NCBI GenBank assembly: GCA_000165345.1
Contig: CM000434.1
Coordinates: 448,001 to 512,000 of the forward strand
Direction of reading: 5' to 3'
Length of the DNA: 64,000 nucleotides
The notes below the pieces were generated by a model. It worked only from the letters and a program-made list of their open reading frames with translations, ran no database searches and was not told the origin of the DNA. Positions 36,986-64,000 of the stretch are shown here, piece after piece; position 1 is the stretch's first letter; each line of letters opens with the position of its first letter. A program made the position numbers and the translations under genes.

Positions 36986-37004
36986 GTTTTATTTATTAAG
37001 CTAT

Positions 37005-43800: not shown

Positions 43801-45666
43801 CGGATAAAAACTCAATAATGGTGAGTTTGGATTAGTAAACAGCTTCCTAAATGGCTTTGGTAAAAGATCCTTGCTATTTGAAGGAAGAACCCCCATTAGT
43901 TGCTCAAACGGTTGCAATGGATTTCCTTTAATAAACCGAAATGCTAACCCATTAAGCTCGATTTCCTCCGAATACATTGTGTGAACAAACATCAATTTAG
44001 AAGAACCATATTTAACAATATCATCTCTACTCAATGTTGAAATACTCTTATTTTGTAGCCAACAACTTAAAATAATGGCAATATCACATGCAAATGGCGC
44101 ATACCTATAAGGGTAATACCATCTCCATGAAGGAACACCTCTAAAATAATAATAGCTGACCCATTGCAAACCCTCAAGGTAACAAAAAACAATATCTTCA
44201 ATAGAATTAGTTGTTATCCTATTGGAATTCGTGTTAGATTTAATATTTGCTTGATTTTGAACATTTGAATTTTCTGGGAAAAACTTATCGATATTTATTG
44301 CCATTTTTACAAAGTAATATCTCCAACGCATAACTTCAAAATTTTCGGGTCTAGTTTCTTGCCACTTTGCCCTAAATTTATCTTGTTCTATAGAGTCTGA
44401 TTTCATAAACCTTGGAACACCTATTGAATCTGAACTAATTTTGTTTTGGTCTGGGATTACCTTTTTCCAATAATCTGGATTAGAAATACGTTTTTCAGCT
44501 TCTTCTTTCTCCGAAATAATATGCCAAATTAGAAACCGTAACAAATTTACATAATTGATTCTACCACAATCTTCGAGTATCCATGGAGAACTACTCAACT
44601 TCATTAAAAAAAAATGAGCCAAATACTTTCTATAACTACTTATTATCCTTGCTAGTCCTTGATCAACAGTGTGGAATGGGATATGAGGGAGAAAATCATT
44701 TCCAACAATGAAGCCTAAGATAATAAAATCGTCAATAAGGCGTTCTCCATCTATTAAAACGTTATCGAAAATACTAATTTGATCCTGTGAATCATTTTTC
44801 AGTCCAAACTTGTATCCGAAACATAAATTTAACTCCTCAACACTTAAATTTCTAGGATTTAAATCATTTATAATATAATCTCTTAAAATAGAGATATGCA
44901 GAAATTGAAACCTTTCCTTTGTGCAAACCGTTCTACTCTCATAATTTCTTGAACTTGAAAATTTTATTTCTTCCCTCAACAAAGAAAAATGTGGTTCATG
45001 AGAAGCAAGAGAAAGCATTATCAAATCAGCATCAAGGCCATACAAGCAATGAGTCGTGTTGTTATTATAGTCTCTTTGGGATTTAATACAACGTATGAAA
45101 TCCATTATTTTATGTTCGCCTTCACCAGGTACGTCAGCTCCACTTAAAACAACTTCTAAATGTTTCCATAATGGATCAGTATGTATTTGATGGTAAATAA
45201 AAAATTCCAGTTGTCTCCGCAACTCATGCATAAAAGTCGTACCAGGAGTTATACAATTCGAATCAAAAACGTTATTTTGTGTTGTATCAATAGAATTATT
45301 TTTCTCCATTTTCTTTAGAAACTCTGAATCCCTTGCAGACCTAAATCTTCTACTTCTTTGTTGATTCATTTTAGCTCTAGGAGCAACCCCATCAACTGCA
45401 ATATAAAGTAATTTCCTAGGTTTAGCTATGTATACCAACTTATTTATATATCTAAAAATAGCAGCCCAAATTTCTGGAGACCCTTTTTCAGATAAATTAA
45501 TCCCATTACTTGGAGTGCGCATTTCACTAGAATTCACACTATTGTGAGCAATTCCATTTACATCCAAATATAAATTATCAAATGGTGGTATAATTCCATC
45601 TGATATTTCCTCATTAATTTGAGGATACCTTTCTGATATCCATCTATAGAATCTCGAGATTCCCAT
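40900..45666 (-). CDS. 5'-3' exoribonuclease, XRN family (length suggests cytoplasmic XRN1-like)
   Basis: 1588 aa. The N-terminus 'MGISRFYRWISERYPQINEEISDGIIPPFDNLYLDVNGIAHN' matches the XRN catalytic N-terminal consensus ('MGVPKF(F/Y)RW..ERYP...FDNLYLDMNGI.H'). Acidic active-site residues are in the expected places ('LDADLIMLSL', 'GEGEHKIMDFIR'). Confidence 0.85.
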   Translation of the reverse strand: MGISRFYRWISERYPQINEEISDGIIPPFDNLYLDVNGIAHNSVNSSEMRTPSNGINLSEKGSPEIWAAIFRYINKLVYIAKPRKLLYIAVDGVAPRAKMNQQRSRRFRSARDSEFLKKMEKNNSIDTTQNNVFDSNCITPGTTFMHELRRQLEFFIYHQIHTDPLWKHLEVVLSGADVPGEGEHKIMDFIRCIKSQRDYNNNTTHCLYGLDADLIMLSLASHEPHFSLLREEIKFSSSRNYESRTVCTKERFQFLHISILRDYIINDLNPRNLSVEELNLCFGYKFGLKNDSQDQISIFDNVLIDGERLIDDFIILGFIVGNDFLPHIPFHTVDQGLARIISSYRKYLAHFFLMKLSSSPWILEDCGRINYVNLLRFLIWHIISEKEEAEKRISNPDYWKKVIPDQNKISSDSIGVPRFMKSDSIEQDKFRAKWQETRPENFEVMRWRYYFVKMAINIDKFFPENSNVQNQANIKSNTNSNRITTNSIEDIVFCYLEGLQWVSYYYFRGVPSWRWYYPYRYAPFACDIAIILSCWLQNKSISTLSRDDIVKYGSSKLMFVHTMYSEEIELNGLAFRFIKGNPLQPFEQLMGVLPSNSKDLLPKPFRKLFTNPNSPLLSFYPANFEVDMEGVKVPWGGVTLIPFIDEFLLLDSITYVLSKCGFYDSDFRNFEIKIKTNFEYELKNRYKFYLSTSELENLIDANTNTHSSIINSSEFLDTEDKARNQEGRPFIFYLDNYAFPTPKIESTVKLYLPSITNSKVVSKSFYHPAFPDGVSNFPNYLLDNTILPFDWFPNLCRIPYRIYYSSGISVFGTESSNESIFSSISSSHISKEFLNNLFLPSINTRNPGIRILVDYPRMKVAELVSIKTLRYILRPKLLTKPIIEPNNNPKEFIRLLFNENSLLKKRGIVLSPSNSMNIDEELLSISKLVNCKEVLDLKDFDAELKDISDPVNCLVEARVAESSYITESGKVEFNFSKISKHYLLPLILLYSDLKESEAERFKQISKINLGEKLLCINKQNPNYGYIGTIVDEAQRLVLFRIPKNKNKVEQLQKRIFEYALEDLSSIQWFSIEDVAKIIYKPLLNCLNTKCGLDATKSLEYMRFSTLFLKKLIIGPIQVKCNDSTLQEISMNLFKFENKLKNKLYLPLYSKFVDENSFITSSNTNVELGTPIVSNEAIKSILEYLDLFPCFVLAIFKSLVLLDQGELDEHIINSEGKNICSNTFNIDNNNEKVENVFNLKKIHVKDIFSDLIDSKDQDFKFNVMIKIIKGKLYRNLPFLSSRSNSATMLPSTISRLERLILNSQIETNDKYIDLSKLCRNEHFYQSENQFNSGINKLISRFGYPLGTRVVYINTNDGLLPFGTVGTVVSVCCGVKVNKEYYPSTIIDILLDETQINANNLNGMCSKLRGISVKSSECIPLLPCIQNLKDENHLEIISKQILNFDLQFNNKAEKSKKKCDNYSYYWLKNQNSSLKQMGKKEISITDKQNSSEVNNNNNNNCNDSDLRCRKTKNKTEIRHINSNEHPLAVELKSLLSININKKKNGLDYLNSRNIENKIKKNDEISNVPECEKKIEDSMEFKLKQILKIT
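41170..41190. repeat. (ATT)7 trinucleotide microsatellite encoding poly-Asn inside the XRN gene
   Basis: 'attattattattattattatt' corresponds to 'NNNNNNN' in the minus-strand ORF. Confidence 0.8.
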
Positions 45667-46190: not shown

Positions 46191-49100
46191 TTATGCAGCG
46201 TTACAAGTTGGCCCAATACATGTTGTTTCATATGACACAATTGGGGTCGTTATAACTTTCTTGACGCAACCTGTACTAGTTTTTTCTGTATTGTCTGGGC
46301 ATCTACTATCTGGTTTTGTTACCAAAACGCACTCCTTATTGTCAAACAAAGTATATGGATCATTGCATGTTAATGAGAATGGAGCATATTCAACAATATA
46401 GCATGTGCCATCTTGATCGGTAACATACCCAGATGGACAACTGGAAACTACTGGTGTAGATTCTATCTTTTCACAACCACCGGATGGGCACACCTTAGGT
46501 GCGAATCTTGCGCATCTATCACCCAATAGTTGACTATCAGCTGTACAGCTTAATGAATATGGAGCAAAAACTTCTCTTGAACAAACAGTTGTCCTCACAA
46601 TGCTTACTTCCTGAGTAACTGCATGATGATGATGATGATGTCCTAGAGCGTGATGATGTCCAGAACTATGATGTGGATGATTTGAAGCTGTTCCTAAAGA
46701 CCTTCTGGTTCCTTGGGCAACTCCAGCCTCCATTGTGTAACCCGGTGGGCAAACAAGCTCTGGTGGGAATGTTCTTATTCTCTCGCAATCGCCATTTGGA
46801 CAGACTTTATCTGCATATTTTGCGCACTTATCGCTGATAACTATTAATCCAGGTGGGCATGCCAATTCATAATCTGCATATTCATTAGCAATACACCTCT
46901 GTCCACTTCTCTCAAAGTTTTGAGGACAAGAGAGAATTGGTGGTATATAACTGATTCTTTCACAATTGTTGTTTGGACAAACCTTTGCTGTTGATTGTTG
47001 GCACATATCTCCCAATAATCTGAATCCATCTGGACATTGTAGTGCATATGGCTCATAAACATTTCTCATACATTGACTTGCTCCACTGGCTTTATGACCA
47101 TGGGATCTGATTGCAACACCAGCCTGAGGTCTATAATATCCAGGTGGGCACTCCATCGTTGGTGGTGAACGAATGAGTTGTTCGCAGTTTCCATCTGGGC
47201 AAACTTTAACAGTATGGATCGCGCATTTATCTCCGATTATTGAATAATTATCTGGACAAGAAAGGTCATAAGGTGTATATATTTGTTTTGTACACTCTTG
47301 TAATAACTGGTTTCCATGTCCATGTCCATGTCCTGCATGATCTGAATGATGATTTGATTGTGGTCTAGTAAATCCAGGTGGGCATACCATATTGGCAGGT
47401 TTACTTATCAATCTCTCGCAGTTACCATTTGGACAGATTTTATTTGTAAACAATGCACATCTATCCCCTAATAACACGAACCCTGATGAACATACTAAAC
47501 TATACTCTTCAAAAATAGTTCTAACACATTCTGCTGAAGGTGTTGAATAATGATGTGTTCCGGCGGTATGCTTGCTTGAAATTGCTGTTTGAATTCCGTT
47601 GGCATTTCTGTAACCTTGTGGACATGAAAGAGTTGGTGGAACGACGACTTGTTTTCTGCAGTCACCTTGTAGACAAATTTTTTCTGTTTTTTCGATACAT
47701 TTGTCGCCATCTAAAATAAATGGAGATTCGCATTTTAAAATATAAGGTACTGAAATTGTCTTAATGCACTCAGGGGAAGCTAGATTTCTGTGATGATGAT
47801 GATGATGATGATGATGTCCTTGATAAATTGTGCCGGTTTGGTAAACTGGAGTTGGATAAGTTGTTAAAATTTCCTGTGTTTGATGAATTACTTGTGGCTG
47901 ATAATTTACTTGTCTTTGTTGAATTACTTGTGGTTGGTTAATAGTTTGTGGTTGGACGGGAACAGAAACATTTGGATGGTTAATATGAGAATGGCTTATT
48001 GGCTGAATTGGTTTAGATGATGAGAATCCTGGAGGGCATACTAATTCAGCAGGCTCATTATATATACGCTCGCAATTACCATTTGGACATATTTTATCCG
48101 AATATGTAACACATTTATCCGCTACAAGTCTTGATCCAACAGGACAGATAAGATTATATGGAGCATGGTCTGCATGGATGCATTTCATTTGCTGAATAGG
48201 AGCAACAACTGGAACTGGTTGTGGTGGCTGAGAAATTACAGGAGTATATTTATGTCCATGAGAATATCCCTTTTGAGAAGTAGATTGAACCCCAGCTAAG
48301 TGTCTGTGGTGTGGATGAGCAGAAATATTCATAACTTCATCTATTTGGTGATATCCAGGGGGACAAGTTAAAGAAACAGGCGCAGTTACAACTCTTTGGC
48401 AACTTTCATTCGGGCAAACTTTTTCTCTTGTGGTAGCGCATTTGTCTCCAACCAATGCATATCCTGCAGGGCATGCAAGATCATATGGTGAATATTTGTT
48501 AACTTGACATTGAGATCCTACATCTACAGAACCTGGCGGACATTTTAAAGTAGGTGGAGTTTTTACAAACTTAGCACACTCTTTTGATCTTGTTCCATCT
48601 TGACAAATTGCTTCTAATGGGTAGTAATTTGTTAATACACATTCTTTTCCTACAAGTTCAGCATTGTTCTCGCAAATAGGCACAGCTGGGACAGAATCAG
48701 CTTTTGTACAAGTTTTTGGGGTAATTTTTGGAACATCTTCACAAATTGGCCTTGGAGCCTCTTTATGATGTTGTGTATGTATATTCTGGGTTTGAATTGG
48801 TATAACTTGTGAATGTGAATGCCCATGAGAATGACCATGATGATGTCCTGGATTTTGTATCTCAGATGTTTCATAAACTGTTGATGTTTCTTTTGCAGCT
48901 GCTAATCTTCTTAGTGCTTTAACATCAGGTGTTTTACACTCTGTAACATAAGTTGTTACTGAACAGTCATATTGGCTTCTTCTAACACATTGTTTACCTG
49001 TTTCCAATGAATAACCAGGTGGGCATTCCAAAACAGGCGAACTAATCGATCTCTCTACGCAAACGTCCCCCTCTCTAGTACCAACAGGACAAACGTATTG

Positions 49101-51062
49101 AAGAGCCCCGGGAACAAGTCTTGTGCACGAGTCTCCATCCAACGCAGAACCTGGAGGACATTCTGGTGTTTTTGGTGAGGTAGTTGTTTGAACACACTGT
49201 TGATTTTGTAGAGTGAATCCAGTAGGACATACAGTTGAAGCAGGAGAAAATTGGATACAATCGTCTCCATTTGGTAAAAATCCATCTGGGCAGATAGCAT
49301 CGATCATTTTTAGTGCAGTACATTGATTTCCTTGAAGTTTATATCCTGGTGGACATTCTGAAACAGGAGGTGCTTCTTTTATTTGCTCGCATTGGGATCC
49401 AGAAAGTGTATATCCAGGTGGGCATTCTCTGTTTGGTGCGGAGAAAGAAGCACAATTTGTACCATTATCAATAAAACCAGTTGGACATACCATATTTATC
49501 CTTTCAACTTTTTGGCATTGTCCATTTACCAGGTTTGTACCTGGAGGACACTCTGGTTGTGGTGGAGCTTGAGTAGTTTGGGTACATTGTTTTCCAATTA
49601 ATACAAAACCTGTTGGACACTCCTTTTCTGGTTGAGAAAACTGAACACAGTCTGATCCATTGTCGAGATATCCAGGTGGACAAATGGCATCTTCTAGTTC
49701 ATATGAAATACAACTGTTATTTTCCAAGGTTGTACCTGGTGGGCATTCTGTTAATCTTGGAGCAGATTCTGTTTTAACACATTGTTTTCCGGAAAGAGAA
49801 AATCCTTGGGGGCAAATTTTCTCTGGTGCAGAAAATTGGACACAATCTTCGCCATTATCTACAAACCCTGGTGGACAAATTGTATCAACTCTTTCTATCG
49901 ATTGACATTGATCATCTTTTAAAATTGTACCTGGTGGGCATTCGAATTCCATGGGAGCATTTACCATTTGAACGCACCTGTTCCCACTCAATGTAAACCC
50001 GGGTGGGCATTCCTTTGTGACTGGAGAATATTTTACACAATCTTTTCCATTGTCTAAAAATTCTGGTGGACAGATAGCATCGATTGCTTGGACTGAAATA
50101 CAGGCATTATCTTGTAATACTGTACCTGGAGGGCAGACAGGTTGAGTTGGAGCAGAACTAGTTTGTATACATTGGAGGCCTTGTAAAATGAAATTTGGTG
50201 GGCATTCCTTTGCAGGAGCTACATATAGTACACAATCATCTCCTGAGTCTGTATATCCTGGTGGGCAGACCATATCAATATTTTTAATCACTTTACATTT
50301 TCCATTTTCAAATATTGAATTAGGTGGGCATGTCGATTCTAATTCAGCTGATTCTGGTGCCATACATTGTTGTCCTGACAAATTGAATCCAGGAGGACAG
50401 ATTTTATTTGCAGGGAGATATTGAACACATCTATTTCCTTCTTCAACAAAACCAGAAGGACAAACGGTATCAATTTGTTGAATTAATTTACATGTGCCAT
50501 TCTCCAGTATAGTGCCTGGAGGACATTCTGGATTAGGAGGAGCTGTGTCTGATTGAACACATTGTTTTCCAGAAAAAACGAATCCTGGGGGACATGATTT
50601 TTCAGGCATAGTGAATGCAACACAATCTCTTCCATTATCTACGAAACCAGGGGGACATACTGTATCTATCATATGTTTAGAGATACACTCTGTTCCATGT
50701 AATGTAGTACCTGGAGGACAAGATGGTTGTTGAGAAGCGGTTTTAGTAGCAGTACATTGCTTTCCTGATATTTCGTATCCTGGTGGACATTGCTTTAGTG
50801 GTGCTGTTACTATTAAACAATGCCCCTCGTGATAGATTGCTGGTTCCTGACAGAAAGGCATAGGAGGAACCTGGATACGTTGGACACAAACTCCATTCTC
50901 CATTAAATACCCTGGAGGGCAGCTTTCTAGCGGAGTTTCAACATACGTAGGTACCTGGCCTTTTGTGTGTGGCAAAGGGGAAGCTACACCAGGAATGTTG
51001 GGTTTAACCTGAGGCGCACCAAATGCACCAATAATAAACGACAATAATAAAATACGTTTCAT
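46191..51062 (-). CDS. COWP1: Cryptosporidium oocyst wall protein COWP1 (cysteine-rich type I/type II repeat protein with His-rich tracts)
   Basis: 1623 aa. Signal peptide 'MKRILLLSFIIGAFGAP'. Dozens of 'CPPG(Y/F/T)...C' cysteine-repeat units in two arrays, plus His-rich tracts ('HHHHHHHHH', 'HGHSHGHSHS'). The published COWP primers cry-9 (50090..50114) and cry-15 (reverse complement at 50621..50642) match exactly. Confidence 0.9.
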   Translation of the reverse strand: MKRILLLSFIIGAFGAPQVKPNIPGVASPLPHTKGQVPTYVETPLESCPPGYLMENGVCVQRIQVPPMPFCQEPAIYHEGHCLIVTAPLKQCPPGYEISGKQCTATKTASQQPSCPPGTTLHGTECISKHMIDTVCPPGFVDNGRDCVAFTMPEKSCPPGFVFSGKQCVQSDTAPPNPECPPGTILENGTCKLIQQIDTVCPSGFVEEGNRCVQYLPANKICPPGFNLSGQQCMAPESAELESTCPPNSIFENGKCKVIKNIDMVCPPGYTDSGDDCVLYVAPAKECPPNFILQGLQCIQTSSAPTQPVCPPGTVLQDNACISVQAIDAICPPEFLDNGKDCVKYSPVTKECPPGFTLSGNRCVQMVNAPMEFECPPGTILKDDQCQSIERVDTICPPGFVDNGEDCVQFSAPEKICPQGFSLSGKQCVKTESAPRLTECPPGTTLENNSCISYELEDAICPPGYLDNGSDCVQFSQPEKECPTGFVLIGKQCTQTTQAPPQPECPPGTNLVNGQCQKVERINMVCPTGFIDNGTNCASFSAPNRECPPGYTLSGSQCEQIKEAPPVSECPPGYKLQGNQCTALKMIDAICPDGFLPNGDDCIQFSPASTVCPTGFTLQNQQCVQTTTSPKTPECPPGSALDGDSCTRLVPGALQYVCPVGTREGDVCVERSISSPVLECPPGYSLETGKQCVRRSQYDCSVTTYVTECKTPDVKALRRLAAAKETSTVYETSEIQNPGHHHGHSHGHSHSQVIPIQTQNIHTQHHKEAPRPICEDVPKITPKTCTKADSVPAVPICENNAELVGKECVLTNYYPLEAICQDGTRSKECAKFVKTPPTLKCPPGSVDVGSQCQVNKYSPYDLACPAGYALVGDKCATTREKVCPNESCQRVVTAPVSLTCPPGYHQIDEVMNISAHPHHRHLAGVQSTSQKGYSHGHKYTPVISQPPQPVPVVAPIQQMKCIHADHAPYNLICPVGSRLVADKCVTYSDKICPNGNCERIYNEPAELVCPPGFSSSKPIQPISHSHINHPNVSVPVQPQTINQPQVIQQRQVNYQPQVIHQTQEILTTYPTPVYQTGTIYQGHHHHHHHHHRNLASPECIKTISVPYILKCESPFILDGDKCIEKTEKICLQGDCRKQVVVPPTLSCPQGYRNANGIQTAISSKHTAGTHHYSTPSAECVRTIFEEYSLVCSSGFVLLGDRCALFTNKICPNGNCERLISKPANMVCPPGFTRPQSNHHSDHAGHGHGHGNQLLQECTKQIYTPYDLSCPDNYSIIGDKCAIHTVKVCPDGNCEQLIRSPPTMECPPGYYRPQAGVAIRSHGHKASGASQCMRNVYEPYALQCPDGFRLLGDMCQQSTAKVCPNNNCERISYIPPILSCPQNFERSGQRCIANEYADYELACPPGLIVISDKCAKYADKVCPNGDCERIRTFPPELVCPPGYTMEAGVAQGTRRSLGTASNHPHHSSGHHHALGHHHHHHAVTQEVSIVRTTVCSREVFAPYSLSCTADSQLLGDRCARFAPKVCPSGGCEKIESTPVVSSCPSGYVTDQDGTCYIVEYAPFSLTCNDPYTLFDNKECVLVTKPDSRCPDNTEKTSTGCVKKVITTPIVSYETTCIGPTCNAA
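46623..46640. repeat. (ATG)6 / (CAT)6 microsatellite encoding a His tract in COWP1
   Basis: 'atgatgatgatgatgatg' on the plus strand corresponds to HHHHHH in the minus-strand ORF. Confidence 0.8.
47791..47816. repeat. (TGA/CAT)n about 9-unit microsatellite encoding the H9 tract of COWP1
   Basis: 'tgatgatgatgatgatgatgatgatg' corresponds to 'HHHHHHHHH' in the minus-strand ORF. Confidence 0.8.
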
Positions 51063-51316: not shown

Positions 51317-54300
51317 TTGGAATGTGTTTTTTCAATAATTTTTGATCGGATTGTAAATTTATTGGATAAAACCAATCAATTTTTTGGGCGCAATTTTCAG
51401 AGATGGATTACATTAACATTAAATATTATGAATACTGACATACTTGAAAGTAGAAATAATAGAAGGCCAAGATATGTTTCAATTAGCTTAAATAATGATG
51501 AATTAACACATTTTTGTCCATTCTTATCTGATAATGATGAAAAAGTCCTGTTTACGTTGACATGCAATTATCTTTCTTTGGGACAATTTGAGTTAGCAAG
51601 ATCAAGCATACTTCAGCTAAGTTCATTAAACTTTAGAAAGGTGTCTGAGCTACTTTATTCCATAATTTATTATGGTCCTCCCCCAGACTGGCAGCTTTCT
51701 GTCACAATTTCTACATCAGCACATTTTATACTTGCATGCATAAGAGAATATGAATCATTTTTCAGAAATAATACTAAAATTGAAAACTACATAATTAAAA
51801 GGACTGAGTTTGATTTATTAATTGGGCAAATGATAGCGGATATCTCCGATGTTAAAATTAGTTTTGAAATAATTAAGAAATTAAGAAATTTTTATTCCGT
51901 TTTTTTAATTAATGGACTTGACGTCAAAGTTCCAGAACTGAAAATCTTGCCAAAAATTGTTGGATTACCTTCTTATCTTAGCAGGCTTCCTTCATTTTCG
52001 ACAAATTTGAACAAATTATCTGAAAATTTATTGATTGACTTGGCAAATAATCAAGGAAAGTATCTTTCGATTAAAATAATTAATGAAATGTTTGAATGTT
52101 TTAATACATCTCGGAGATATTTTATTAAAATCGCAAAAATACTAATTATGGATCATTCGAATACATTAAAATTCGAGACTAGTTTGATCAAAGACAACTC
52201 AATACTTAAAAATACATTATCTTCTATCAATGTTAGCTTAAATTGGATTGGATTGAAGAATTGCATTATTGATCTGATTTTTTTCAAGGAAAATTGTGGA
52301 ATAATATCCTTAAATTCGCTTGGAGATATGATTTCAAAAAATATTTCAATAATTAAATTAGAAGATATTTTCGAAAATCATGATTTAGAGCTTACTAATT
52401 TTACATATGAAAAAGATGTTTCATCAAAAAACAACTTTACTAAAAATAAAAAGCCAGAGGATGTTATTTCAATAGTATTTATGATATTTTGCATAATAAA
52501 TCTATTTTGTAAATATAAACTGAACAAGGAGATTTTTCTTAAGTTTTTAGCTGACCAAATTGAAATTTTAAAGTCTTGTGAAGATATTTGTAACACATGT
52601 ATATTTGACTCTAGAATAATTTCAAATGTTAAAAGTCTATTTTCAGAAAATCTTCTTAAGCAATTAAGTAATTTTCAAAGCATTCATCAATACTTAAATG
52701 ATATAAATACAGTTAAATTTTTCGAAAATGATACTTATTCTGATCATATTGGAACACTTGTTAATTCAAATTCCGACCAAAATTTATTGTTTAAAATTGT
52801 TTTGGAATTTGACAATATTTTGTTTAATATTAATTTTGGAATAAGTAATTCTTTGGGAATTTTTTCATTACCAAGATATATTGAGAATAAAAATAAAGTT
52901 ACTTTAAATCCTATTTTAACTTACGATTTTTCAATAAATTGTAAATTTGATGAAAAGCCTTTTTTTTGGTGCGAATATTTAAGGTATTTAAATTTATCTA
53001 GAAATAAGTTTGAAGAGCTGCCCATTATTTTTATAACAAATTTATTTGACAAGATTTATAAAACCAAAAGAAATATTAATTCTTTTGAGTCTGCAAATAA
53101 AATTATTCTTTGTTTCCCACATTTAAGAGCAATTTGCGTTCATCTTGGGATGAAAAACGATCCTATTTTTAATTGGGAACTACTTAAGAACATCTGGTTG
53201 CCATTTAGATTAATTAGCAAAAACGAAGAATCACTTGTTGAGAGCAAATCTTTGGAACTCGATCTAGATGAAATATCAAGAAGACATGCAATTTCCATGT
53301 TTATTTCGGAAGAACTTAATTCGAATTTTTGCAGCGAGTTTAGATATAGTTCAAACAAAAATATTAGAAAAATATTTGAAGAAATAACTCTTAAAAAATC
53401 AATTATAAATTATTATTTTGATAATTTTAACTCTTCCAAAAAGTACACAACAATAAATTGGGTTTCACTGGAAGCATTTATTTCAAACATAATTTCTCTT
53501 CCACTAACAATTGGTAGTGATATTTCGTTATTAACAAAAGAAAGAGACTGCATAAAATCATACTTAATACAAAAAGAAGTTTTCGAGACAATTGATGGAA
53601 AGGGAAGTTCAAGCTTTGGGTTAAATTTACAGAACACATCTATTGAAATTGGAAATATTCAAACTGAATACTTTCATAATGAATTAATGTATTGTTTTTT
53701 TTGCCGAATTTTTATTTATTTAAAGAAAATTAAAATAAACAATTCGATTATTCATACTAAAAACAAAAAATTATTCAACATCACACAATTGTTGTACTAC
53801 TTATTTATTTGGAGTGATAGATTATCCAGAAATTTTCAAATTGAAATGCTTCCAGTTATTGAAAAAACTTTTGAAAAAACAATTTTGATGATTGAATTGA
53901 TATTATTTTCATTTCCATTTAATATTCCAAACTTGCCACTACCAAAAAATTTGGAAATTTTTTCTTGGTGGTATCGCTTTATTTTATCAACCCCATCAAG
54001 AGTATTCAATACAGGGAAAACAATAATCCGCTCAAGTAAAAGTTCAGAATATTTTCAAAATTTGTTTAAAGTTAGATGGGTTATTCGCGGAATTTATGAA
54101 AATAATCCATGGTATTCAAATTTATTTAGTTTTGAATCATTTTGTGTTTTAAATTATTACAACAATTCGACTAGAAATAATTACTCAGAAATATTACTTT
54201 TTCCTTCTATTCTTATTCTAAAGCTATTATCTATTCAGAACTATGAAAAATCTATTGAATTAATATTGAGTTCAAAATTTCACGTAAATATAACGCTAAT

Positions 54301-56365
54301 AGTTCTGGACGGTTTTATTTTCCATTCACTCTTTGAGGAAGAAGTAATTAATAATTATTGCAATATTAACAAAATTTATGGAATAATTAAAAACGCGAAA
54401 ACTGAAAGATTAACGAAACTTGATTTATTAAATATTAACAAGATTTCTTTATTTTCGGCAATGGAGGTATTTTCTATATATATTCAAACAAAATTTATCG
54501 ATAATGAAAATGAGATAGGCTGGATATTTTATGCTTTTCCTAAACTATATCAAGCATTCGTATTGATAGATCTCTATATTTGTTTTGGAAATAAAAATTC
54601 CTCAAATTTATTTGAAGATATAGCGAAGGCTAGAGATATGATAGAACAGTACACCAGTAATTTAAATATTAAATACAAGTCAGTGGTTCAAACTACTTTA
54701 GACAGACTTTTTATATTTTATCAGTCTTCCAGCACAATTTCTTTAACAAGATATATAATGGAGATAGATACATTACCAAATCAAAGTTCTCAGATAAAAA
54801 CTCATTTAAGCAGAATTCATGATAGAAAATTAATAACTACAACGTTAACTCAGTCATTAAATTATTTATCTGGCTTTTCTTTAATTAAACCACAAGACGA
54901 AAGTTTAATTAATATTAATCAAATTTTGGAACAAAGTTTATTTTCAAATTTTAATAACTCTAGCTATCTATTTTCAGTAATTCATTATATAAAGTCTATC
55001 ATTTCAGAGTTATTTTTAAATCTGGATAAGCACAAAGCATTTCCAATTTTAGCATTGACTCCAAATGAAATAATTTCCTACTCTTTCTTTGAAAGAAAGT
55101 TAAAAGGAGGTAGTAAGAGACTTTCGAGAATAATGAACGCAGACTTGATCTCTGTTATAATTAAAGCTCTTAATTGTTTTCATTGCTCAACATCAATGTT
55201 CAGGAACAGTGAAATTAGCTCACATAGTGATATGGAATTTCTAATTAAACAGCTTGATCCATTTAAGGGAACATTTGCAATGTTGTCCCACAATATTTTA
55301 CAGTCTAAAGATGTACAATATAGCTATTTTATATGGAAATTCGCCGTCAAGAATCGAATAAACTTTAGTCTTGAAAAAAAACAAATTATTCTAATTTCAT
55401 TGGAATACCGTATCTGGAAATACGATATACATAAGCAGCTTGAATCTAAAATATTTAATGCCAATATAGATAAGTTATCTGGATTCTTTACATCTAAATC
55501 TTTGGAATACTATAATTATTTATTAAAGTGGCTATCGATAATAATTACATTTTTTTCTCTAAATTGTAATGATTTACATCTTATAATGAATAAATTTGAT
55601 AAAACTATTGGTTTAATTAATTATTTATTCCCAATTTATTCTATTAGTCGTACTAATACTGTTGACAAAATTTTGTTTCAGTTATCCAGAGAAATGTTGA
55701 GAAATCAAAATATAATCAACCTACATTTGAATAATTTTAAACGAATAATAAAATTAAATAATCCATATTATCTTTATAGGTTAATAACTAGAGCTCAGGG
55801 AATATCAGATCCATATTTTATTTTGTCAATCATTGAAGTTACTAGCAAAAGTATAAAAAATAGCTATTCTGGAATTAAAAATTCTAAATCAAATAATTTC
55901 AAAAGTAAATTTATTGAAGAAAATATCTATGTAATTTTAAATGTCCAAAGGCTATTTTGTATTTCATATATTAAACATTTTAAAAATAATAGCGATATAT
56001 GGAATGAGTGGTTCATTTTGATTAAAAAGTGGGAAACAACGAAAGGTATAATATCAATGTTGAAATACTCAATAGAAATGAAGATGTTCAGTATAGCAAA
56101 AATTATATCTCAACAATTGCTATTTAAAGTTATAAAGCATTGTGGGGATGTTCAATATACAGAAAAAGAATTGAAACATTTTTTTTCTGGGGATAACTTT
56201 TTTGAAGAAATAGGAAAAGATAATAATTTCAATAATTTTTCTTTAGTTTCAATTGTCAATTATATTATTACAAATATTAGAGATGACAAATTTTTCAGAA
56301 ATATAACTTTATTAAATTATCTAAAGCTGTTGTTTCAAAATGGATTGGTAGTTTCGAAAGTATAA
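51317..56365 (+). CDS. Large (1682 aa) hypothetical protein (possibly the N-terminal part of a roughly 2700-aa gene together with 56413..59409)
   Basis: Uninterrupted 5-kb ORF, N/I/K/L/F-rich, with no recognisable domain. It terminates at 56363..56365 while the downstream ORF's frame is already open from 56287. Confidence 0.6.
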   Translation: MECVFSIIFDRIVNLLDKTNQFFGRNFQRWITLTLNIMNTDILESRNNRRPRYVSISLNNDELTHFCPFLSDNDEKVLFTLTCNYLSLGQFELARSSILQLSSLNFRKVSELLYSIIYYGPPPDWQLSVTISTSAHFILACIREYESFFRNNTKIENYIIKRTEFDLLIGQMIADISDVKISFEIIKKLRNFYSVFLINGLDVKVPELKILPKIVGLPSYLSRLPSFSTNLNKLSENLLIDLANNQGKYLSIKIINEMFECFNTSRRYFIKIAKILIMDHSNTLKFETSLIKDNSILKNTLSSINVSLNWIGLKNCIIDLIFFKENCGIISLNSLGDMISKNISIIKLEDIFENHDLELTNFTYEKDVSSKNNFTKNKKPEDVISIVFMIFCIINLFCKYKLNKEIFLKFLADQIEILKSCEDICNTCIFDSRIISNVKSLFSENLLKQLSNFQSIHQYLNDINTVKFFENDTYSDHIGTLVNSNSDQNLLFKIVLEFDNILFNINFGISNSLGIFSLPRYIENKNKVTLNPILTYDFSINCKFDEKPFFWCEYLRYLNLSRNKFEELPIIFITNLFDKIYKTKRNINSFESANKIILCFPHLRAICVHLGMKNDPIFNWELLKNIWLPFRLISKNEESLVESKSLELDLDEISRRHAISMFISEELNSNFCSEFRYSSNKNIRKIFEEITLKKSIINYYFDNFNSSKKYTTINWVSLEAFISNIISLPLTIGSDISLLTKERDCIKSYLIQKEVFETIDGKGSSSFGLNLQNTSIEIGNIQTEYFHNELMYCFFCRIFIYLKKIKINNSIIHTKNKKLFNITQLLYYLFIWSDRLSRNFQIEMLPVIEKTFEKTILMIELILFSFPFNIPNLPLPKNLEIFSWWYRFILSTPSRVFNTGKTIIRSSKSSEYFQNLFKVRWVIRGIYENNPWYSNLFSFESFCVLNYYNNSTRNNYSEILLFPSILILKLLSIQNYEKSIELILSSKFHVNITLIVLDGFIFHSLFEEEVINNYCNINKIYGIIKNAKTERLTKLDLLNINKISLFSAMEVFSIYIQTKFIDNENEIGWIFYAFPKLYQAFVLIDLYICFGNKNSSNLFEDIAKARDMIEQYTSNLNIKYKSVVQTTLDRLFIFYQSSSTISLTRYIMEIDTLPNQSSQIKTHLSRIHDRKLITTTLTQSLNYLSGFSLIKPQDESLININQILEQSLFSNFNNSSYLFSVIHYIKSIISELFLNLDKHKAFPILALTPNEIISYSFFERKLKGGSKRLSRIMNADLISVIIKALNCFHCSTSMFRNSEISSHSDMEFLIKQLDPFKGTFAMLSHNILQSKDVQYSYFIWKFAVKNRINFSLEKKQIILISLEYRIWKYDIHKQLESKIFNANIDKLSGFFTSKSLEYYNYLLKWLSIIITFFSLNCNDLHLIMNKFDKTIGLINYLFPIYSISRTNTVDKILFQLSREMLRNQNIINLHLNNFKRIIKLNNPYYLYRLITRAQGISDPYFILSIIEVTSKSIKNSYSGIKNSKSNNFKSKFIEENIYVILNVQRLFCISYIKHFKNNSDIWNEWFILIKKWETTKGIISMLKYSIEMKMFSIAKIISQQLLFKVIKHCGDVQYTEKELKHFFSGDNFFEEIGKDNNFNNFSLVSIVNYIITNIRDDKFFRNITLLNYLKLLFQNGLVVSKV

Positions 56366-56412
56366 TTGGATTTTTAAATAGTAATATTGGTATAGATGAA
56401 AAATATATTATT

Positions 56413-59409
56413 TTGGATGCCTATATTAATTCACAGAACTCTTCATTAGATGCCAATCGTATCAATATATTAAAGACTATACTGACTTCCATAAAATTGG
56501 TAAAAGACCTTAGGATGAGTAATATTCAAGCGTCCAATTTATTTTCTCCATATTTAATTATTAGGATGGCAATTATGTCAAGGAATAGTAGATTGATTGA
56601 AATATTAAAGAGAGATATTGATATTTTTCTAAAATCCGGGGATGTTTTATTAAATTTAATTGAAGAGTCATTTGGAATTATTGACGATAAACAGATACTA
56701 AAGGAAAAGATAAAAAAATCTTATATTTTTGGGCAAGCTGACATAAATTCGTGTATAAAATTATTTCCAATGATTGAAAATAATATTAAATTATGTTTAA
56801 ATATAGAAGATATTCCATCATACAACAATGATATATATTTTTCTATCAAACTGATTTCTATTATACCTAAAAAAAAAACAATGAGTGATCTTTTATTTAG
56901 TATCTCTAACAAGATATCAAACCAGCTTTACAGAATATTTAGAAATTCTATTTCAGATAATTCATTAATCCGCACAAGGTTTGAATGTAGTAATTCGCAG
57001 CTTTGGGTTGCTGAGGAAGGTTCATTAAAAATAATTCCTAACAGCCTACATCCTTTTTCCAAATTTTCAAAAGCAAAAAGAAACTCGTATTATATCAAAA
57101 ATCGGTGTCTAAATAAATATAAGAGCGGATTAAATATAAATTTAGAAAAGAGTTATAATAATAGAAATGAAATCAACATAGAAAATATTTCAAAATCAAG
57201 AATTTTATTTAGAAATTTATTTGTTTTATTAACTTGGGCAAGCGATTATATTGGGAAAAGCGAATTTAGCAAATCAATTAAAAGCTTAACACATTTATTT
57301 GAAATTTGGCAAAGGAATCCTGCATTATCATTCTCTTTGAAAGATTTTGTGTATATAAGTGATTATGTTATTCTAGTTCTAGTTTTCTCTGACCAAATAA
57401 AGATATTAAAAGATTTGAGTGAAAATAATATTCTTGAAACAAATATGAAGCCTTTAGATAAAAATCATGAACCAAAAAATTTAATTATTTGTAACATAGT
57501 TGCAAATTCAATTACAATTTCAAGAATGAACCAGTATTATAACGGAAAAAGTGACCATTCAAATCCCACTACCCTAAATGCATCTAAATCGAGAAATGAA
57601 ATGATAATGGATATATTTTGCAATAAATGGAAGATTAATAGAGGAAAAGTGACCAATATTGAAATTTTAAAGGGCAACACAGTGAGGATTATTGAAAATC
57701 TTTTACTTCTAAAGCCTGATATCTTGAATTTAAGTATTTTAATAATAATATTAACTTACCATTCATGGGGAAAGCTTCAAATGTATATTAGTGGGCAAAT
57801 AAAACGTATGTTACACTTTCCATGCGCATCAATATTAAATTTTAAATTTTTCAATTCAATATTTGAATTATATGAACAATTATTTATCTCAAATGTTAAA
57901 ATTAGAATGAATGAAATATATACAATTTCAGATTTAGTTTCAAACTGGAAAGATTTTTCTGTTGGAATTGAAAATAATTCAGATTTTTTTGAAAATTCTA
58001 ATGATAATTTGAGTTTGTCATATACCACATTTTTTTTAGAGAGAATAACAAATTCTATTAAAAAAAACTTATTCTTAAAATATAAAAAAGCAATTAAAAT
58101 GATAAAATGCATTCAAGTAAAAAAATTGAACAATATAATAATTTATTTTAACCAAAAAAAAGTGAACAACAAAAAATTCTTTCAACTTGACTTCATTAAT
58201 CACTTATTAATACAAAGTACTCCAAATCACTATTTTTTAATAAATACTTTTGTAAAATTAAATCTATGGTGGGAATTAATGGTTTACATTCTAAGATGGA
58301 GTTTTGAGCTTGGACCTTCCAAATCGAGATCTTTATTAATAGATAAAAGACGTGAAATACGAGCAAACAGTGAAAAAACTTTTGAAGAGATATTTTTTGA
58401 CCTGGTTATAAAAAAAGCTCATTCAAAAGGCCAATTAAATTCTCTGATCAATGCAATGAATGAAGCCGTACCATTGGGAGGCCCAAGAGCCGCTATAGTT
58501 GTGAAAAAGTGCAAAAATGCAATACAAAAATACTTAGAATGTAGTGGGGCTTTGGAAATGTTATATAGATCTTTTCTATCACTTTATATTTCAATTGAGA
58601 TTCCTCACGCACTTATGGGGGCAATAGCAATCCATCTTTCACTTCTAGACCATTTAAATATTGATTCAAGGACTGGATACTTAGAATCAGCTTTGTACCA
58701 TTTCAAAAATGCAAATTTGGTATTGAAAAAAAAAGTTAAGTCAGGAGTAATTAAAAAGAACAAACATGCATCTCCAACAAACTGTATTGACTGCGAAAGA
58801 ACTGCAGAAGTCCCATTTCTTTCTCAAAATTTGAATATTGGGAAATTAAACGACGTACTTATTCCATTTATCGCTGATATTCCAATTTATAAAATTAATA
58901 TTTCTCCTTGGGGTGGTCTTTCATTGCCAATAATACAAAGAATAATCAGATTAGTCGAGCTGCAAAATTCGATTATTAAACTCTTAATAAAAGAAAATTC
59001 ATCAATGTCAATTTTAAGTCCAAATTATAAGGATAGAAGAAATGTTATAGTAGTTCTCTTTCTTATTCGTGAATATCCTCTTGCATTTAAGACTTCTAAC
59101 ATGCTTGAAATACCATTGATGGAAATTTTGGTGCATGCGACTAAAGAACTGATAGTTTCTTATCCAAACAGCAATTCTCTTTATTGTTTTCTGGATTCAA
59201 TGAAACTATGGCTGTCAGAATACGACTCGGATGCACTAATATCAAATGCAATAAATATGTGGATCTCGGAAAAAAAAATAAATCTTAATAATATCCCAGA
59301 ATTAGAAAAAAACAGTATAATGGAACTCGTTAATAGGCTGTCAAACCCTTTGAGCAGAAGCGAAGCATTTAAAATGATAAATCCTTTGGAAAGAGTTAAA
59401 TTAAGTTAA
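56413..59409 (+). CDS. Large (998 aa from first TTG/ATG) hypothetical protein, possibly continuous with the upstream 1682-aa ORF
   Basis: Same strand and the same amino-acid composition as the upstream ORF. Its reading frame is open back to 56287 and overlaps the last 26 codons of the upstream ORF. The track's start at 56413 is a TTG codon; the first ATG is further downstream. The real start is therefore uncertain. Confidence 0.5.
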   Translation: MDAYINSQNSSLDANRINILKTILTSIKLVKDLRMSNIQASNLFSPYLIIRMAIMSRNSRLIEILKRDIDIFLKSGDVLLNLIEESFGIIDDKQILKEKIKKSYIFGQADINSCIKLFPMIENNIKLCLNIEDIPSYNNDIYFSIKLISIIPKKKTMSDLLFSISNKISNQLYRIFRNSISDNSLIRTRFECSNSQLWVAEEGSLKIIPNSLHPFSKFSKAKRNSYYIKNRCLNKYKSGLNINLEKSYNNRNEINIENISKSRILFRNLFVLLTWASDYIGKSEFSKSIKSLTHLFEIWQRNPALSFSLKDFVYISDYVILVLVFSDQIKILKDLSENNILETNMKPLDKNHEPKNLIICNIVANSITISRMNQYYNGKSDHSNPTTLNASKSRNEMIMDIFCNKWKINRGKVTNIEILKGNTVRIIENLLLLKPDILNLSILIIILTYHSWGKLQMYISGQIKRMLHFPCASILNFKFFNSIFELYEQLFISNVKIRMNEIYTISDLVSNWKDFSVGIENNSDFFENSNDNLSLSYTTFFLERITNSIKKNLFLKYKKAIKMIKCIQVKKLNNIIIYFNQKKVNNKKFFQLDFINHLLIQSTPNHYFLINTFVKLNLWWELMVYILRWSFELGPSKSRSLLIDKRREIRANSEKTFEEIFFDLVIKKAHSKGQLNSLINAMNEAVPLGGPRAAIVVKKCKNAIQKYLECSGALEMLYRSFLSLYISIEIPHALMGAIAIHLSLLDHLNIDSRTGYLESALYHFKNANLVLKKKVKSGVIKKNKHASPTNCIDCERTAEVPFLSQNLNIGKLNDVLIPFIADIPIYKINISPWGGLSLPIIQRIIRLVELQNSIIKLLIKENSSMSILSPNYKDRRNVIVVLFLIREYPLAFKTSNMLEIPLMEILVHATKELIVSYPNSNSLYCFLDSMKLWLSEYDSDALISNAINMWISEKKINLNNIPELEKNSIMELVNRLSNPLSRSEAFKMINPLERVKLS

Positions 59410-60353: not shown

Positions 60354-61429
60354 TTAATTTCTCTGAGTCCTTCCAAAACTTACCTTTGAATATAGGGATA
60401 TTAGTGCTGTTTCTACTTTAAGAATTCTATCTCCCATATTCACGACTTTGAATCCCATTGTAATTAAGTCTGTCAATTCTTCTTTTGTCCAACCTCCTTC
60501 AGGTCCAATAGCAAGGATAATTGGTCCAGTGTGGCTTTGTAATCCTATTTCAGTAATCTTGCTGTTGCCTAAGACATCAGCAACAATTCCAATCATGCTT
60601 TCTTTGCAAAAAAAATAATTCCTAATATTGTTAATGTTTAACAAAAAGGAAGTAAAGTTTCTTACCTTAAATGCTGTAGAAAAAATGTCCAAGAAGCATA
60701 AACATAAACATCTGGGCACAATGTTTTTGATGCCTGTTCAAGCCCAAGCTGTACAATTTCATCAATAGACTCTTTTTTTAACTTGGATGAATTTAAATAC
60801 GACTTTTCGGATTTATCAGTACAAACAAAAATTATTCTTCCAACTCCAATTGTAACCGCATTTTGAAGTACTTTCTCAAACACTTTTGGTCTAGGAAGTG
60901 CAATTAATAAGTCGATTAAGGGGTAATCATGTTTATATTCCTCTTTATGAATTTCTGTATCTAACTTAATTGTAACTGCATATTGAAAATTATTTAAATT
61001 ATTGATTTCCGAAATAGATCTTCTGGATCTATTATTTACTTTATTACCTATTTCTTCAATGCTAGATAAGTTAATTATTGATTCTGATTTGGTTATTCCA
61101 TCTTTATTAGTTTCTTTTCTCATTATTTTGGTTACTGTTGCAGTTCCTTTTCCAGAGTTTTTAACTCCAACATTAACTTTTGAGCCAATATTAATTTCCA
61201 GAACTGAGATACAATGATTGGACTGTCTGGAGGATAGCTCAACAGTTAGGTCTTCATTAATATCCTTTTTATCAATAATGATTAAGTTCATTAGAATTGA
61301 TGGAAAAATGACCATTATGGCGGTATGATCTGCATTAAGACTGGATCTTCTCGCATGGTGCATAAGAAAGATACGATCACATAATAAAACTAAGCTAACA
61401 AAAGATTGGGTTTCGTATTGAAAGATCAT
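60354..61429 (-). CDS. RsmE-like SPOUT-class RNA methyltransferase (16S rRNA m3U1498 methyltransferase family), two exons
   Basis: Exon 1 is 61429..60666 and exon 2 is 60621..60354 (minus strand). The 44-nt intron 60665..60622 has donor GTAAGA and acceptor ATATTAG. Splicing joins '...LGLEQASKTLCPDVYVYASWTFFLQHL' to 'RNYFFCKESMIGIVADVLG...IGPEGGWTKEELTDLITMGFKVVNMGDRILKVETALISLYS'. The last stretch matches the RsmE C-terminal motif 'iGPEGGf..eE......GF..vsLG.RILRtETAa'. The track shows this as two overlapping ORFs in different frames. Confidence 0.75.
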
Positions 61430-61446
61430 TTATTTTTTATTTGAAA

Positions 61447-64000
61447 ATGCCTTTATATTTTCAAGATGACTTATTCTCAATAACGAAAGATCAAAAAAAA
61501 TATATTAACATCAAAAGGTATACTTTAAAATCAATCATTTTTTTTTAAATAACTTTTTTAGTCTGATAAGAACAACCTTTACTTTTGTTTACAGTATTTT
61601 TATTTTTACTACTGCAGTTTTAGTCTTAAATAAATATTATTCATTTCCTGGAATTGTTGCAATTGGTAAGTTAATAATAATATATTAAGCAATTTCAACT
61701 TCGTATCCTAAGTATTTAACAGTGGAATTTTTTTTTTCTTATATATAATTATTGAGTGGTTTAATCTTCCAAAATTTTTAAATTGGAATATTTCATATTT
61801 TTTGATTAAAAGAAAACTCTATAAATCATCTACAAGAATTTTTCAAAAAAAAGTCAGCAGACCGTAAGTTTATAATGTTTTTTAGAAAATTATTAATGGT
61901 TTTTAGGTATTTGAAAAACTCGAACCTTAAAAAAAATAAAAATGAACTAGAAGAGTGTATTGAGATTGATTGTAAAAGTGGAAGTTCAGAATCGTTTAAT
62001 GAAACTGGATTATATGACTATGCATTTGATCATTCAATAATTTCTAAAGCTGCTTCAGATGATTGGGTAGCTGCAATACCTCGAATACATAAACAAGTGG
62101 GTTTAAATTTTTCAATTTTAGATTTATCATTTTTAGGTTATGAGCAATGAATTTTATTCAAACAAATTATTTACATTAAAAGGAGTTGAATTGATTCATT
62201 GGGGAATTCATACAGGTTACCCAAGTTTTTCCCAATTATTAAAAAATACATCAGAAATACTTAGTTCATTTATTGAAATGTGTTTTAGGCAAACACAAAC
62301 GCCTGCATATCAAACAGGTAAGGTTTTATTAACTTATTTTGTTAAAATAATATTTTTAGGCCACATTGTAAAATCAATGTTGTGGTCCGGGGTGTATATT
62401 TGGGCAACAACAAAGATGTATCGTAAAAATAATAATGACCCATGGAATTTTAAACGTATTCCGGAGATTTACTATTTTTTTGAATCAACATTTTTGTGGA
62501 TGCTTTCCTATGATTATGTAATTGGTACGCACTAAAATAATTTATATGAAAAGTTGATTTTTGTTTCAGGTTTAATAGCAATATGGTATAGAAAAGAGAG
62601 TACAATACGTTATATTTTCAATTTTTATCAAATTATTGACTTTTTGTCGCTTCCTCCGTTCTTATTGTTTATAATTACAATAAGCCCACAATACGAATCA
62701 AGCCAAAGTTGGTTATTAATGTAAGTTTAGCAATATTTTTTTCAAACTTCAAATATTTGATTAGATTCGGGTGGTTAAGATTTTTAAGACTATTTCGAAC
62801 AGAAAAAGTGTTGGATATGTTATTTCCACATGTTTCTGCAATAAAAAGAAGAGTTATCGGTAAGACATTCTTTCTTTAATGATATTTTTTACTAAAATAA
62901 TTAGGAATTTTTGCTGGTGCGATAACCATCATTTTAACTCATGCTGGTGCAATATTTACGATAGAGTCACCATCGGAAAAAGAATATAATAGTTTGTTTG
63001 ATTATTTGTATTATTCAGTTGTAACAATTGGTACTGTAGGTTATGGCGACTTTTCACCTCGAAAAAGAGAAGGAAGACTAGCTACAATCATTTTGATCAC
63101 CCTGACCTTAGTTTTACTTCCTCATGAATTTCAAAGACTAAAAGAAGCATTAAATACACCACCAGATTCAATTGGATCATTTATTAGGAAAAATGATACA
63201 TATTTGTGTATTATTGGACCAATTCCACCAAAGGTAAGTTAATTATGCTCTTTGCAATATTTTAACACTTTCTTAAAGCAGTTGTTATTTATTACAAAAA
63301 GTCTTTCTCTGCAAAAACAAAGAAGATTCAAATCTATAGTACTTGTGACACCAATACAAATTTTAGAATATCAAAACATAGTTAAAATATCACAACAAAG
63401 AGGTTATATTCGATTAAGTATAAAGCAGGGTTTTTTAGGATCTGCAATCAATAACCTGGTCCAATATAGCTCTATTGTTTTAATTTATGGATCAGAGAAG
63501 CCAATATTACATGATGTTATTTGTAATGAAGGAACGCAAAAAAGTGACTTTGATGCACTGATTACTGTAATGTGTAAGCGATAAAATGAATAATTATGAT
63601 TAATAATATGAATTTTAGGTCTGACTAATTTATTGGGGCTAAAAGATAAATTTTTTCTTATTTTTTATTCATCGCAAGTTGCAAGTTTATCAAAGATAAC
63701 TGGAGTATTAGGGAGCCTATCTTTAGAGAATTTAAGAATTAAATTATTAAGCAAATGTATAAGTAATTGTCCAGGGTTTCTACCAATTATGCTACATCTT
63801 ATTATACCAAAGAATGAAAACATGCTTAAAAAGCTCCAGGAACCACCAAAAAATACATTTTTTACTAGTAATATCGATAGATCAAAAATTACCCCATATG
63901 AATGGAAATGTAGATGGAGGGGACTGCATTTTAAGGTTTATACATTAAGATTTCCAAACTCATTTTTTGGATATCCAATACAAATTTTTACGAAGTATAT
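61447..64000 (+). CDS. Voltage-sensor-containing K+ channel with cytoplasmic RCK-like domain (BK/Slo-like), multi-exon, 3' partial at window end
   Basis: Proposed exons: 61447..61517, 61562..61665, 61713..61863, 61907..62136, 62183..62317, 62360..62524, 62570..62720, 62765..62859, 62905..63233, 63279..63573, 63619..>64000. All ten introns are 42-47 nt (GTAAG/GTATAC/GTACGC/GTTATG donors, YAG acceptors) and the phases are consistent throughout. The spliced product has an S4-like 'WLRFLRLFRTEKV' (R at every third position), pore helix plus selectivity filter 'YYSVVTIGTVGYGDFSP', S6 'LATIILITLTLVLL', and a post-S6 'YLCIIGPIPP' resembling the Slo 'HIVVCG' start of RCK1. The ORF track splits this into at least 4 ORFs. 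Confidence 0.75.

Follow-up and report, generated by a model that had tools for sequence, protein, structure and literature searches.

What does a cluster of short reading frames encode at the end of a Cryptosporidium chromosome segment whose other genes are long and mostly uninterrupted? The segment, referred to here as the window, comprises 64,000 nucleotides (nt) of GenBank assembly GCA_000165345.1 (contig CM000434.1, forward-strand positions 448,001 to 512,000), and the cluster occupies window positions 61447-64000. An earlier reading of the letters, the original prediction, held that this region is a potassium (K+) channel gene interrupted by at least ten very small introns, with a voltage-sensor motif, a selectivity filter and a cytoplasmic region resembling that of BK/Slo channels. 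The analysis presented here supports this K+ channel, BK/Slo-like interpretation, and found only one intron position to be wrong. With a probability of about 0.82, the locus is the 5' part of a Cryptosporidium chromosome-6 K+ channel gene of 12 exons, a member of an Apicomplexa/chrompodellid family that is homologous along its full length to BK/Slo. Judged by sequence comparison, moreover, the deposited models examined for this gene appear to be wrong in splicing out the small exons that encode the voltage sensor.

Gene structure and splice sites

Window 61447-64000 represents the 5' 60% of the chromosome-6 K+ channel gene deposited as XP_001388321 and CAD98503. The corresponding protein cluster at 90% identity contains XP_001388321.1/EAZ51515.1 (C. 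parvum Iowa II), CAD98503.1 (C. parvum) and entries from C. hominis and C. tyzzeri. Window 61300-64000 is 100% identical to contig CP029785.1 of Cryptosporidium sp. 43IA8, and the orthologous loci of Cryptosporidium chipmunk genotype I, C. ubiquitum and C. felis share 89%, 83% and 70% identity with the same interval, respectively. The window locus was aligned at the DNA level with these three orthologous loci, hereafter the four species, and each exon and intron was measured separately.

Without splicing, the longest open stretch in any frame of 61447-64000 is at most 132 codons. Removal of ten GT..AG segments of 40-47 nt produces a continuous frame of 704 codons that starts at the ATG at 61447 and is still open where the window ends, in agreement with the earlier proposal that stitching exons together across tiny introns would give a continuous protein. 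In 30 of 30 shuffled versions of the locus, read-through by way of GT..AG introns of 38-61 nt was impossible; chance arising from base composition therefore does not explain the open spliced frame. GT and AG occupy aligned positions in all ten introns of the four species, and intron lengths vary by non-multiples of 3. All eleven exons in the window either have the same length in the four species or differ by multiples of 3. Identity to C. felis is 40-67% in introns and 66-84% in exons. Splicing at equivalent positions yields stop-free products in all four species, with an overall ratio of non-synonymous to synonymous substitution rates (dN/dS) of 0.06-0.08, and every exon is under purifying selection.

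Reconstruction with the identical public contig gives a corrected gene of 12 exons and 11 spliceosomal GT-AG introns of 40-49 nt, encoding 1273 amino acids (aa). The introns are unevenly spread: ten fall within the first 2.2 kb, or first half, of the gene, followed by a 1.85-kb intron-free exon and then by one more. All of these features lie on the plus strand; below, lengths separated by slashes are those of the four species, beginning with the window. Exon 1 (61447-61517; 71 nt in all four species) begins at the ATG at 61447, which is conserved in the four species and upstream of which similarity declines. Intron 1 (61518-61561; 44 nt, GTATAC..TTTTAG; 44/46/45/46) leads to exon 2 (61562-61665; 104 nt in all four species), which encodes the first of two hydrophobic N-terminal helices and the beginning of the other. 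Intron 2 (61666-61712; 47 nt, GTAAGT..CCTAAG; 47/47/47/42) ends in a conserved AAG acceptor. A competing CAG acceptor at 61722 was rejected, being out of frame with the GTAAGT donor and absent in C. felis. Exon 3 (61713-61863) measures 151/148/148/154 nt, with differences in multiples of 3.

Intron 3 (61864-61906; 43 nt, GTAAGT..TTTTAG; 43/41/43/41) contains the ATG at 61898 that serves as the start of several public models and is absent in C. ubiquitum and C. felis. The original prediction had pointed out an alternative acceptor for this intron at 61885, 21 nt upstream and in frame. This site exists in the window sequence but was rejected: it would leave an intron of 22 nt, and in C. ubiquitum and C. 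felis the segment between the two sites measures 20 nt, which breaks the frame. Exon 4 (61907-62096; 190/190/193/184 nt, again with differences in multiples of 3) encodes cytoplasmic linker.

At the next junction, the earlier model and the comparative evidence diverge. In the original prediction, 62097-62136 was coding and intron 4 ran from 62137 to 62182, its donor being the non-consensus GTTATG; this arrangement also leaves an open frame in the window sequence. However, 62097-62136 differs in length by 2 nt in C. felis (40/40/40/42), where it is only 55% identical, and it begins with GTGGGT (GTGAGT, GTTAGT or GTAAAT in the other species). The stretch at 62137-62182, by contrast, measures a constant 46 nt across the four species and is coding; its peptide, VMSNEFYSNKLFTLK, is present in every public model, and GTTATG directly follows a conserved TTTTTAG acceptor whose last base, 62136, is the acceptor used by all public models. 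Because the variable 40-nt segment is bounded by TTTTTAG and the 46-nt stretch is constant, the true intron 4 is 62097-62136, and GTTATG forms the first bases of exon 5; the arrangement with a GTTATG donor can be given almost no credence. Of the introns originally proposed, nine were placed correctly and this tenth was misplaced, so that the claim of at least ten introns stands with ten GT..AG introns in the window, now of 40-47 nt.

Exon 5 (62137-62317) is 181 nt in all four species. Intron 5 (62318-62359; 42 nt; 42/43/43/46), which is 40% identical to its C. felis counterpart, is in frame and stop-free in the window species, and two public models wrongly read through it. Exon 6 (62360-62524; 165 nt in all four species, 84% identical to C. 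felis) encodes S1 and S2, including E274 and D284, and its S2 aligns with that of Slo. Intron 6 (62525-62569; 45 nt, GTACGC..GTTTCAG; 45/45/42/43) follows; a competing donor, GTAATT at 62518, was rejected on a reading of the sequence by hand, as it leads into a stop codon.

The two voltage-sensor exons come next. Exon 7 (62570-62720; 151 nt in all four species, dN/dS 0.03-0.06) encodes the end of S2 and S3, including IIDFLSLPPF and FYQIIDFLSLPPF. Intron 7 (62721-62764; 44 nt, GTAAGT..GATTAG; 44/46/42/45) separates it from exon 8 (62765-62859; 95 nt in all four species), which encodes the S4 helix, WLRFLRLFRTEK, and the S4-S5 linker. The S4 residues R343, R346, R349 and K352 are specified by 62778-62807, and exon 8 differs from C. 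felis by 17.5 synonymous and 1.5 non-synonymous changes. Intron 8 (62860-62904) is 45 nt, GTAAGA..AATTAG (45/46/48/47). Exon 9 (62905-63233; 329 nt in all four species) encodes S5, the pore helix, the TVGYGD filter (63033-63050), S6 and the start of RCK1, YLCIIGPIPP (63201-63230), which aligns with the first strand of Slo RCK1. The S4 motif RFLRLFR (62778-62798), the selectivity filter and the RCK1 start are all located and interpreted as the original prediction had them.

Intron 9 (63234-63278; 45 nt, GTAAGT..TTAAAG; 45/44/46/46) has a tandem acceptor (AAAG/CAG), with the second site, CAG, at 63281. Public models use 63281; family alignment favours 63278, which would keep the Q of the family consensus P-x-Q-L. 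Exon 10 (63279-63573; 295/298/298/298 nt) encodes RCK1 sequence that aligns with Slo RCK1, and intron 10 (63574-63618) is 45 nt, GTAAGC..TTTTAG (45/45/45/46). Exon 11 begins at 63619, encodes the BK_channel_a region of RCK1 and runs off the window at 64000. The expected continuation of the coding sequence was recovered from the identical public contig, in which exon 11 extends to window-equivalent position 65465 and is followed by intron 11 (65466-65514; 49 nt, GTAAGT..AACAG) and by the last exon, exon 12, which ends at about 65757 according to public models mapped onto that contig.

A Slo-type channel with a predicted voltage sensor

In the 1273-aa product, a cytoplasmic linker of about 165 aa separates two hydrophobic helices near the N-terminus from S1-S4, after which come an S5-P-S6 module with TVGYGD and two RCK domains. 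The N-terminal helices correspond to hydropathy peaks at aa 28-46 and aa 54-72, about 165 aa ahead of S1, and this two-helix region and the linker are conserved within the genus (dN/dS 0.09-0.19). By eye, several relatives likewise show paired hydrophobic helices upstream of S1. The filter, TVGYGD (aa 413-418), is invariant in the four species and in 12 family members. Basic S4 residues occur at every third position (RxxRxxRxxK; R343, R346, R349 and K352) and are invariant in the four Cryptosporidium species, and R346 is at least 90% conserved across the family. The genus shows no variation at the acidic residues E274 and D284 of S2 or D311 of S3; across the family, D284 and D311 are either invariant or conserved to at least 90%, and E274 and D311 align with acidic residues of Slo.

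Two checks proposed with the original prediction, a Pfam search of the spliced product and an extension in the 3' direction to find the second RCK domain, agree with this architecture. The 704-aa window product matches Ion_trans_2 (2e-13) and Ion_trans (25.6 bits against a cut-off of 25), and after the 3' extension the 1273-aa product matches BK_channel_a over aa 612-716 (27.8 bits against a cut-off of 26.8). In the same full-length product, Slo-like_RCK and Slowpoke_C remained below their Pfam cut-offs (16 bits against 24). The extension also yielded a second RCK region ahead of the end of the last exon at about 65757, where the family profile aligns with Slo RCK2.

A homologue search with the public C. 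felis model as query retrieved relatives from gregarine transcriptomes, Lankesteria, Selenidium, Gregarina, Eimeria, Cyclospora, Neospora, Besnoitia, Plasmodium fragile, Theileria equi, Babesia bovis (XP_001610013), Vitrella and Chromera, with Neospora and Besnoitia matching at 1e-53. S3 and S4 of these relatives are collinear with exons 7 and 8 and share the consensus LRFLRLxRxE. A family profile of 12 members, headed by the corrected window product, was then searched against solved structures. Its match to Drosophila Slo (7pxe; E=1.5e-55) is collinear and unbroken from S2 to the C-terminus (profile 283-1230, chain residues 166-1141). Aplysia and human BK scored about 1e-49 to 1e-47, their matches being divided into a part that covers the membrane region and RCK1 and a part that covers RCK2. 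Isolated gating-ring structures (3naf, 3mt5 and 5a6e_C) were also matched, at about 1e-22 to 1e-25. The profile scored 7e-35 against Slo2.2 and about 1e-20 against Kv channels, the latter over the sensor and pore only. When a single sequence was searched against solved structures, the Slo2.2 pore was the best match (5a6e, 2.4e-8; 5u70), followed by Kv and BK.

The likeness to BK/Slo1 thus extends over collinear S1-S6, the TVGYGD filter, RCK1 including the BK_channel_a region, and RCK2. The LRFLRL of the channel S4 aligns with LRFLRALRL of Slo1, and the acidic residues of S2 and S3 align with D153 and D186 of Slo1. The two proteins nevertheless differ in several respects. Sequence identity is low. 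Slo1 has a single S0 helix, by which its N-terminus comes to lie outside the cell; for the Cryptosporidium channel, hydropathy points instead to two helices about 165 aa upstream of S1, in a region that showed no sequence similarity to Slo or to relatives. With four basic residues at every third position, the channel S4 is more Kv-like. The aspartate run of the Slo1 calcium bowl (QDDDDDPD in Slo) is not conserved; the family consensus has an unconserved insert in its place, and the window-species protein reads FQYSDDWPTRIDG.

Slo2.2/KCNT1 (KCa4.1, Slack) provides the closest single-sequence pore match among solved structures, but the family profile scores Slo1 far above Slo2 (1e-55 versus 7e-35). 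To our knowledge, the S4 of Slo2 lacks regular arginines, unlike that of the Cryptosporidium channel. Kv channels (KvAP, Kv1.2 and Shaker) align over sensor and pore at about 1e-20, with R343, R346 and R349 in register with consecutive S4 arginines of KvAP; however, the Cryptosporidium channel has no T1 domain, and its C-terminus is a Slo-type tandem RCK. Among apicomplexan proteins, Babesia bovis XP_001610013 belongs to the same family (E=6.3e-28), Theileria equi was also matched, and there is a family-level match to the Kch channels (PfKch1/PfKch2 and PbKch1) through a 1860-aa Plasmodium fragile protein (E=1.7e-34). The Plasmodium protein shares the S4 motif, LRFLRLVRAES, but the Cryptosporidium protein is shorter, at 1273 aa. 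PfKch1 and PfKch2 are reported to be K+ channels, and loss of PbKch1 is reported to abolish oocyst formation almost completely (2022 review, PMC9799330).

By analogy with the Slo and Kv families, four subunits of the Cryptosporidium protein would form a K+-selective TVGYGD pore. Opening of this pore would follow movement of S4, and a cytosolic ring of eight RCK domains would also gate it on binding a ligand.

Deposited models and the voltage-sensor exons

Ten full-length deposited models from seven species or isolates were compared with the reconstructed gene. Deposited models of the gene vary in length between 1016 and 1182 aa, and no two annotation projects fully agree. Most models start at the ATG at 61898 in intron 3 or further downstream, the starts seen being 61447, 61898 and 62140; the donor before exon 5 is either 62067 or 62097, and retention of intron 5 varies. 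Further differences concern the voltage sensor. Eight of the ten models join ...SYDYVIG straight to IFAGAITII, so that 62525-62904 becomes a single intron of 380 nt. Even more is lost from the C. ubiquitum model; the C. felis model retains S3 and deletes IFGWLRFLRLFR together with part of S5. Exon 7 is skipped in all public models of the parvum clade, and exon 8 is wholly or partly skipped in every model examined.

If the deposited models were right, 62525-62904 would be a single intron, the channel would have no S3-S4 and hence no voltage sensor, and the conserved stretches within the interval would be, for example, splicing or regulatory elements. The ten models agree to the extent that SYDYVIG is joined to IFAGAITII directly or with partial inclusion of the interval, and the direct join is in frame. 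However, exactly 151 and 95 nt are kept in the four species at the positions of exons 7 and 8, and the three short introns that flank them drift by non-multiples of 3. Compared with C. felis, substitutions in the two exons are overwhelmingly synonymous (47.5 synonymous and 6.5 non-synonymous; dN/dS about 0.04), which is as strong a constraint as that on the pore exon. S3-S4 of gregarine proteins derived from mRNA, of the Plasmodium protein, of Slo and of KvAP line up collinearly with the peptide that the two exons encode. A borderline Ion_trans match appears once exons 7 and 8 are restored, and the public model that lacks S3-S4 has none. A 380-nt intron would also be atypical beside ten introns of 40-49 nt, and the public models are inconsistent with one another on this very point, that of C. 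felis keeping S3. A single 380-nt intron is therefore very unlikely, and exons 7 and 8 are better read as coding exons.

The skip of exons 7 and 8 went unnoticed because it is in frame (151+95 = 246 nt). The same fact favours another explanation, in which the two exons form an alternatively spliced cassette and both sensor-bearing and sensor-less isoforms are made, since their joint omission removes 82 codons without shifting the frame; a re-annotation preprint also refers to alternative splicing in C. parvum, though only in a general way. Against this explanation, preservation of the frame is expected by chance in one case in three, no direct evidence for the cassette was found, and S1-S2 without S3-S4 but with a pore and gating ring would make an odd membrane topology. 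We consider a cassette unlikely. An extension of the same idea, that the cassette is regulated, so that the parasite switches between a voltage-sensing and a sensor-less Slo-type channel and has retained 11 tiny introns for the sake of that regulation, is slightly more doubtful again.

Several observations weigh against the sensor-bearing, 12-exon gene as reconstructed here. Each of the ten full-length deposited models lacks the exon for S3, the exon for S4 or a portion of S4, some of these annotations may have used RNA-seq, and an mRNA without exons 7 and 8 would still be translatable. Support for the splice junctions is comparative throughout; the transcript-derived gregarine homologues speak for the presence of the encoded segments, not for the junctions. 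The Ion_trans score borders the cut-off, falling from 25.6 bits for the 704-aa product to 24.5 bits for the 1273-aa product. A hidden Markov model of aa 1-112 gave no significant signal against family members, and this region showed no similarity outside the genus, so that the case for the N-terminal exons comes from within-genus evidence only. Finally, the literature yielded no experimental work on the Cryptosporidium channel and no electrophysiology for any Cryptosporidium channel. It should be added that current curated CryptoDB models may already include the correction.

An intron-rich gene in an intron-poor genome

The original prediction set this gene apart from an intron-poor neighbourhood, and the contrast between its high intron density and the intron-poor genome is real. 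Across the 64-kb window, G+C content is 22-40% and long uninterrupted open reading frames (ORFs) are densely packed; 89% of window positions 1-61446 fall within 16 such ORFs, each at least 250 aa long. The long intronless ORFs include those for an adaptin N-terminal domain protein (37008-40310), an XRN1-type 5'-3' exonuclease (40903-45666) and a 1623-aa protein with cEGF repeats (46194-51062), all on the minus strand. The adaptin ORF converges with a 2664-aa plus-strand ORF at 36985-37005, where the two stop codons are separated by 19 nt. At 51317-59409, two plus-strand ORFs of 1682 and 998 aa lie 47 nt apart and are probably joined by one short intron; public contigs annotate a single gene of about 2660 aa, and neither half of the pair matches Pfam.

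The gene adjoining the channel is not intronless, given the 44-nt intron that it contains. It is a divergently oriented RsmE-like RNA methyltransferase gene on the minus strand, with its ATG at 61429 and its intron at 60622-60665 (GTAAGA..ATTAG, in the same size class as the channel introns). The product matches Pfam Methyltrans_RNA (6.9e-14), and without the intron its length is 343 aa, exactly as in the public model. The start codons of the two genes (61429 and 61447) are 17 nt apart, and 17-21 nt apart in all four species; the 5' untranslated regions or promoters of the channel and methyltransferase genes must therefore overlap each other's coding sequence.

In the C. parvum annotation of Isaza 2015, about 89% of genes are intronless, intron-bearing genes have 2-10 exons with a mean of 2.6, and there are 688 introns in total with a mean length of 99 bp (PMC4637869). 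Against that annotation, a channel gene of 12 exons would be the most exon-rich. The clustering of its introns toward the 5' end is what 3'-biased intron loss mediated by reverse transcripts (cDNA) in a weakly expressed gene would be expected to leave. The channel gene is a handy test case for how introns are retained when a genome is compacted.

The gene and its family were already known; the annotation correction is useful, and the intron density is unusual for this genome. Prole and Marrion 2012 listed XP_001388321 as a C. parvum KCa homologue, with six transmembrane domains and closest to KCa4, and recorded no Kv-type homologues for C. parvum or C. hominis (PMC3283738). Gene models that lack the sensor probably explain both the missing Kv-type homologues and the KCa4-like filing in that survey. 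Expression, modelling or targeting work that starts from the database sequences would use a protein short of two transmembrane helices and, in most models, of its N-terminus as well. The residual value of the locus lies in the voltage sensor restored by annotation correction and in a clear case of extreme intron retention in an intron-depleted genome. Once exons 7 and 8 are put back, C. parvum and C. hominis join C. muris, Toxoplasma and Plasmodium in possessing a Slo-type channel that carries an S4.

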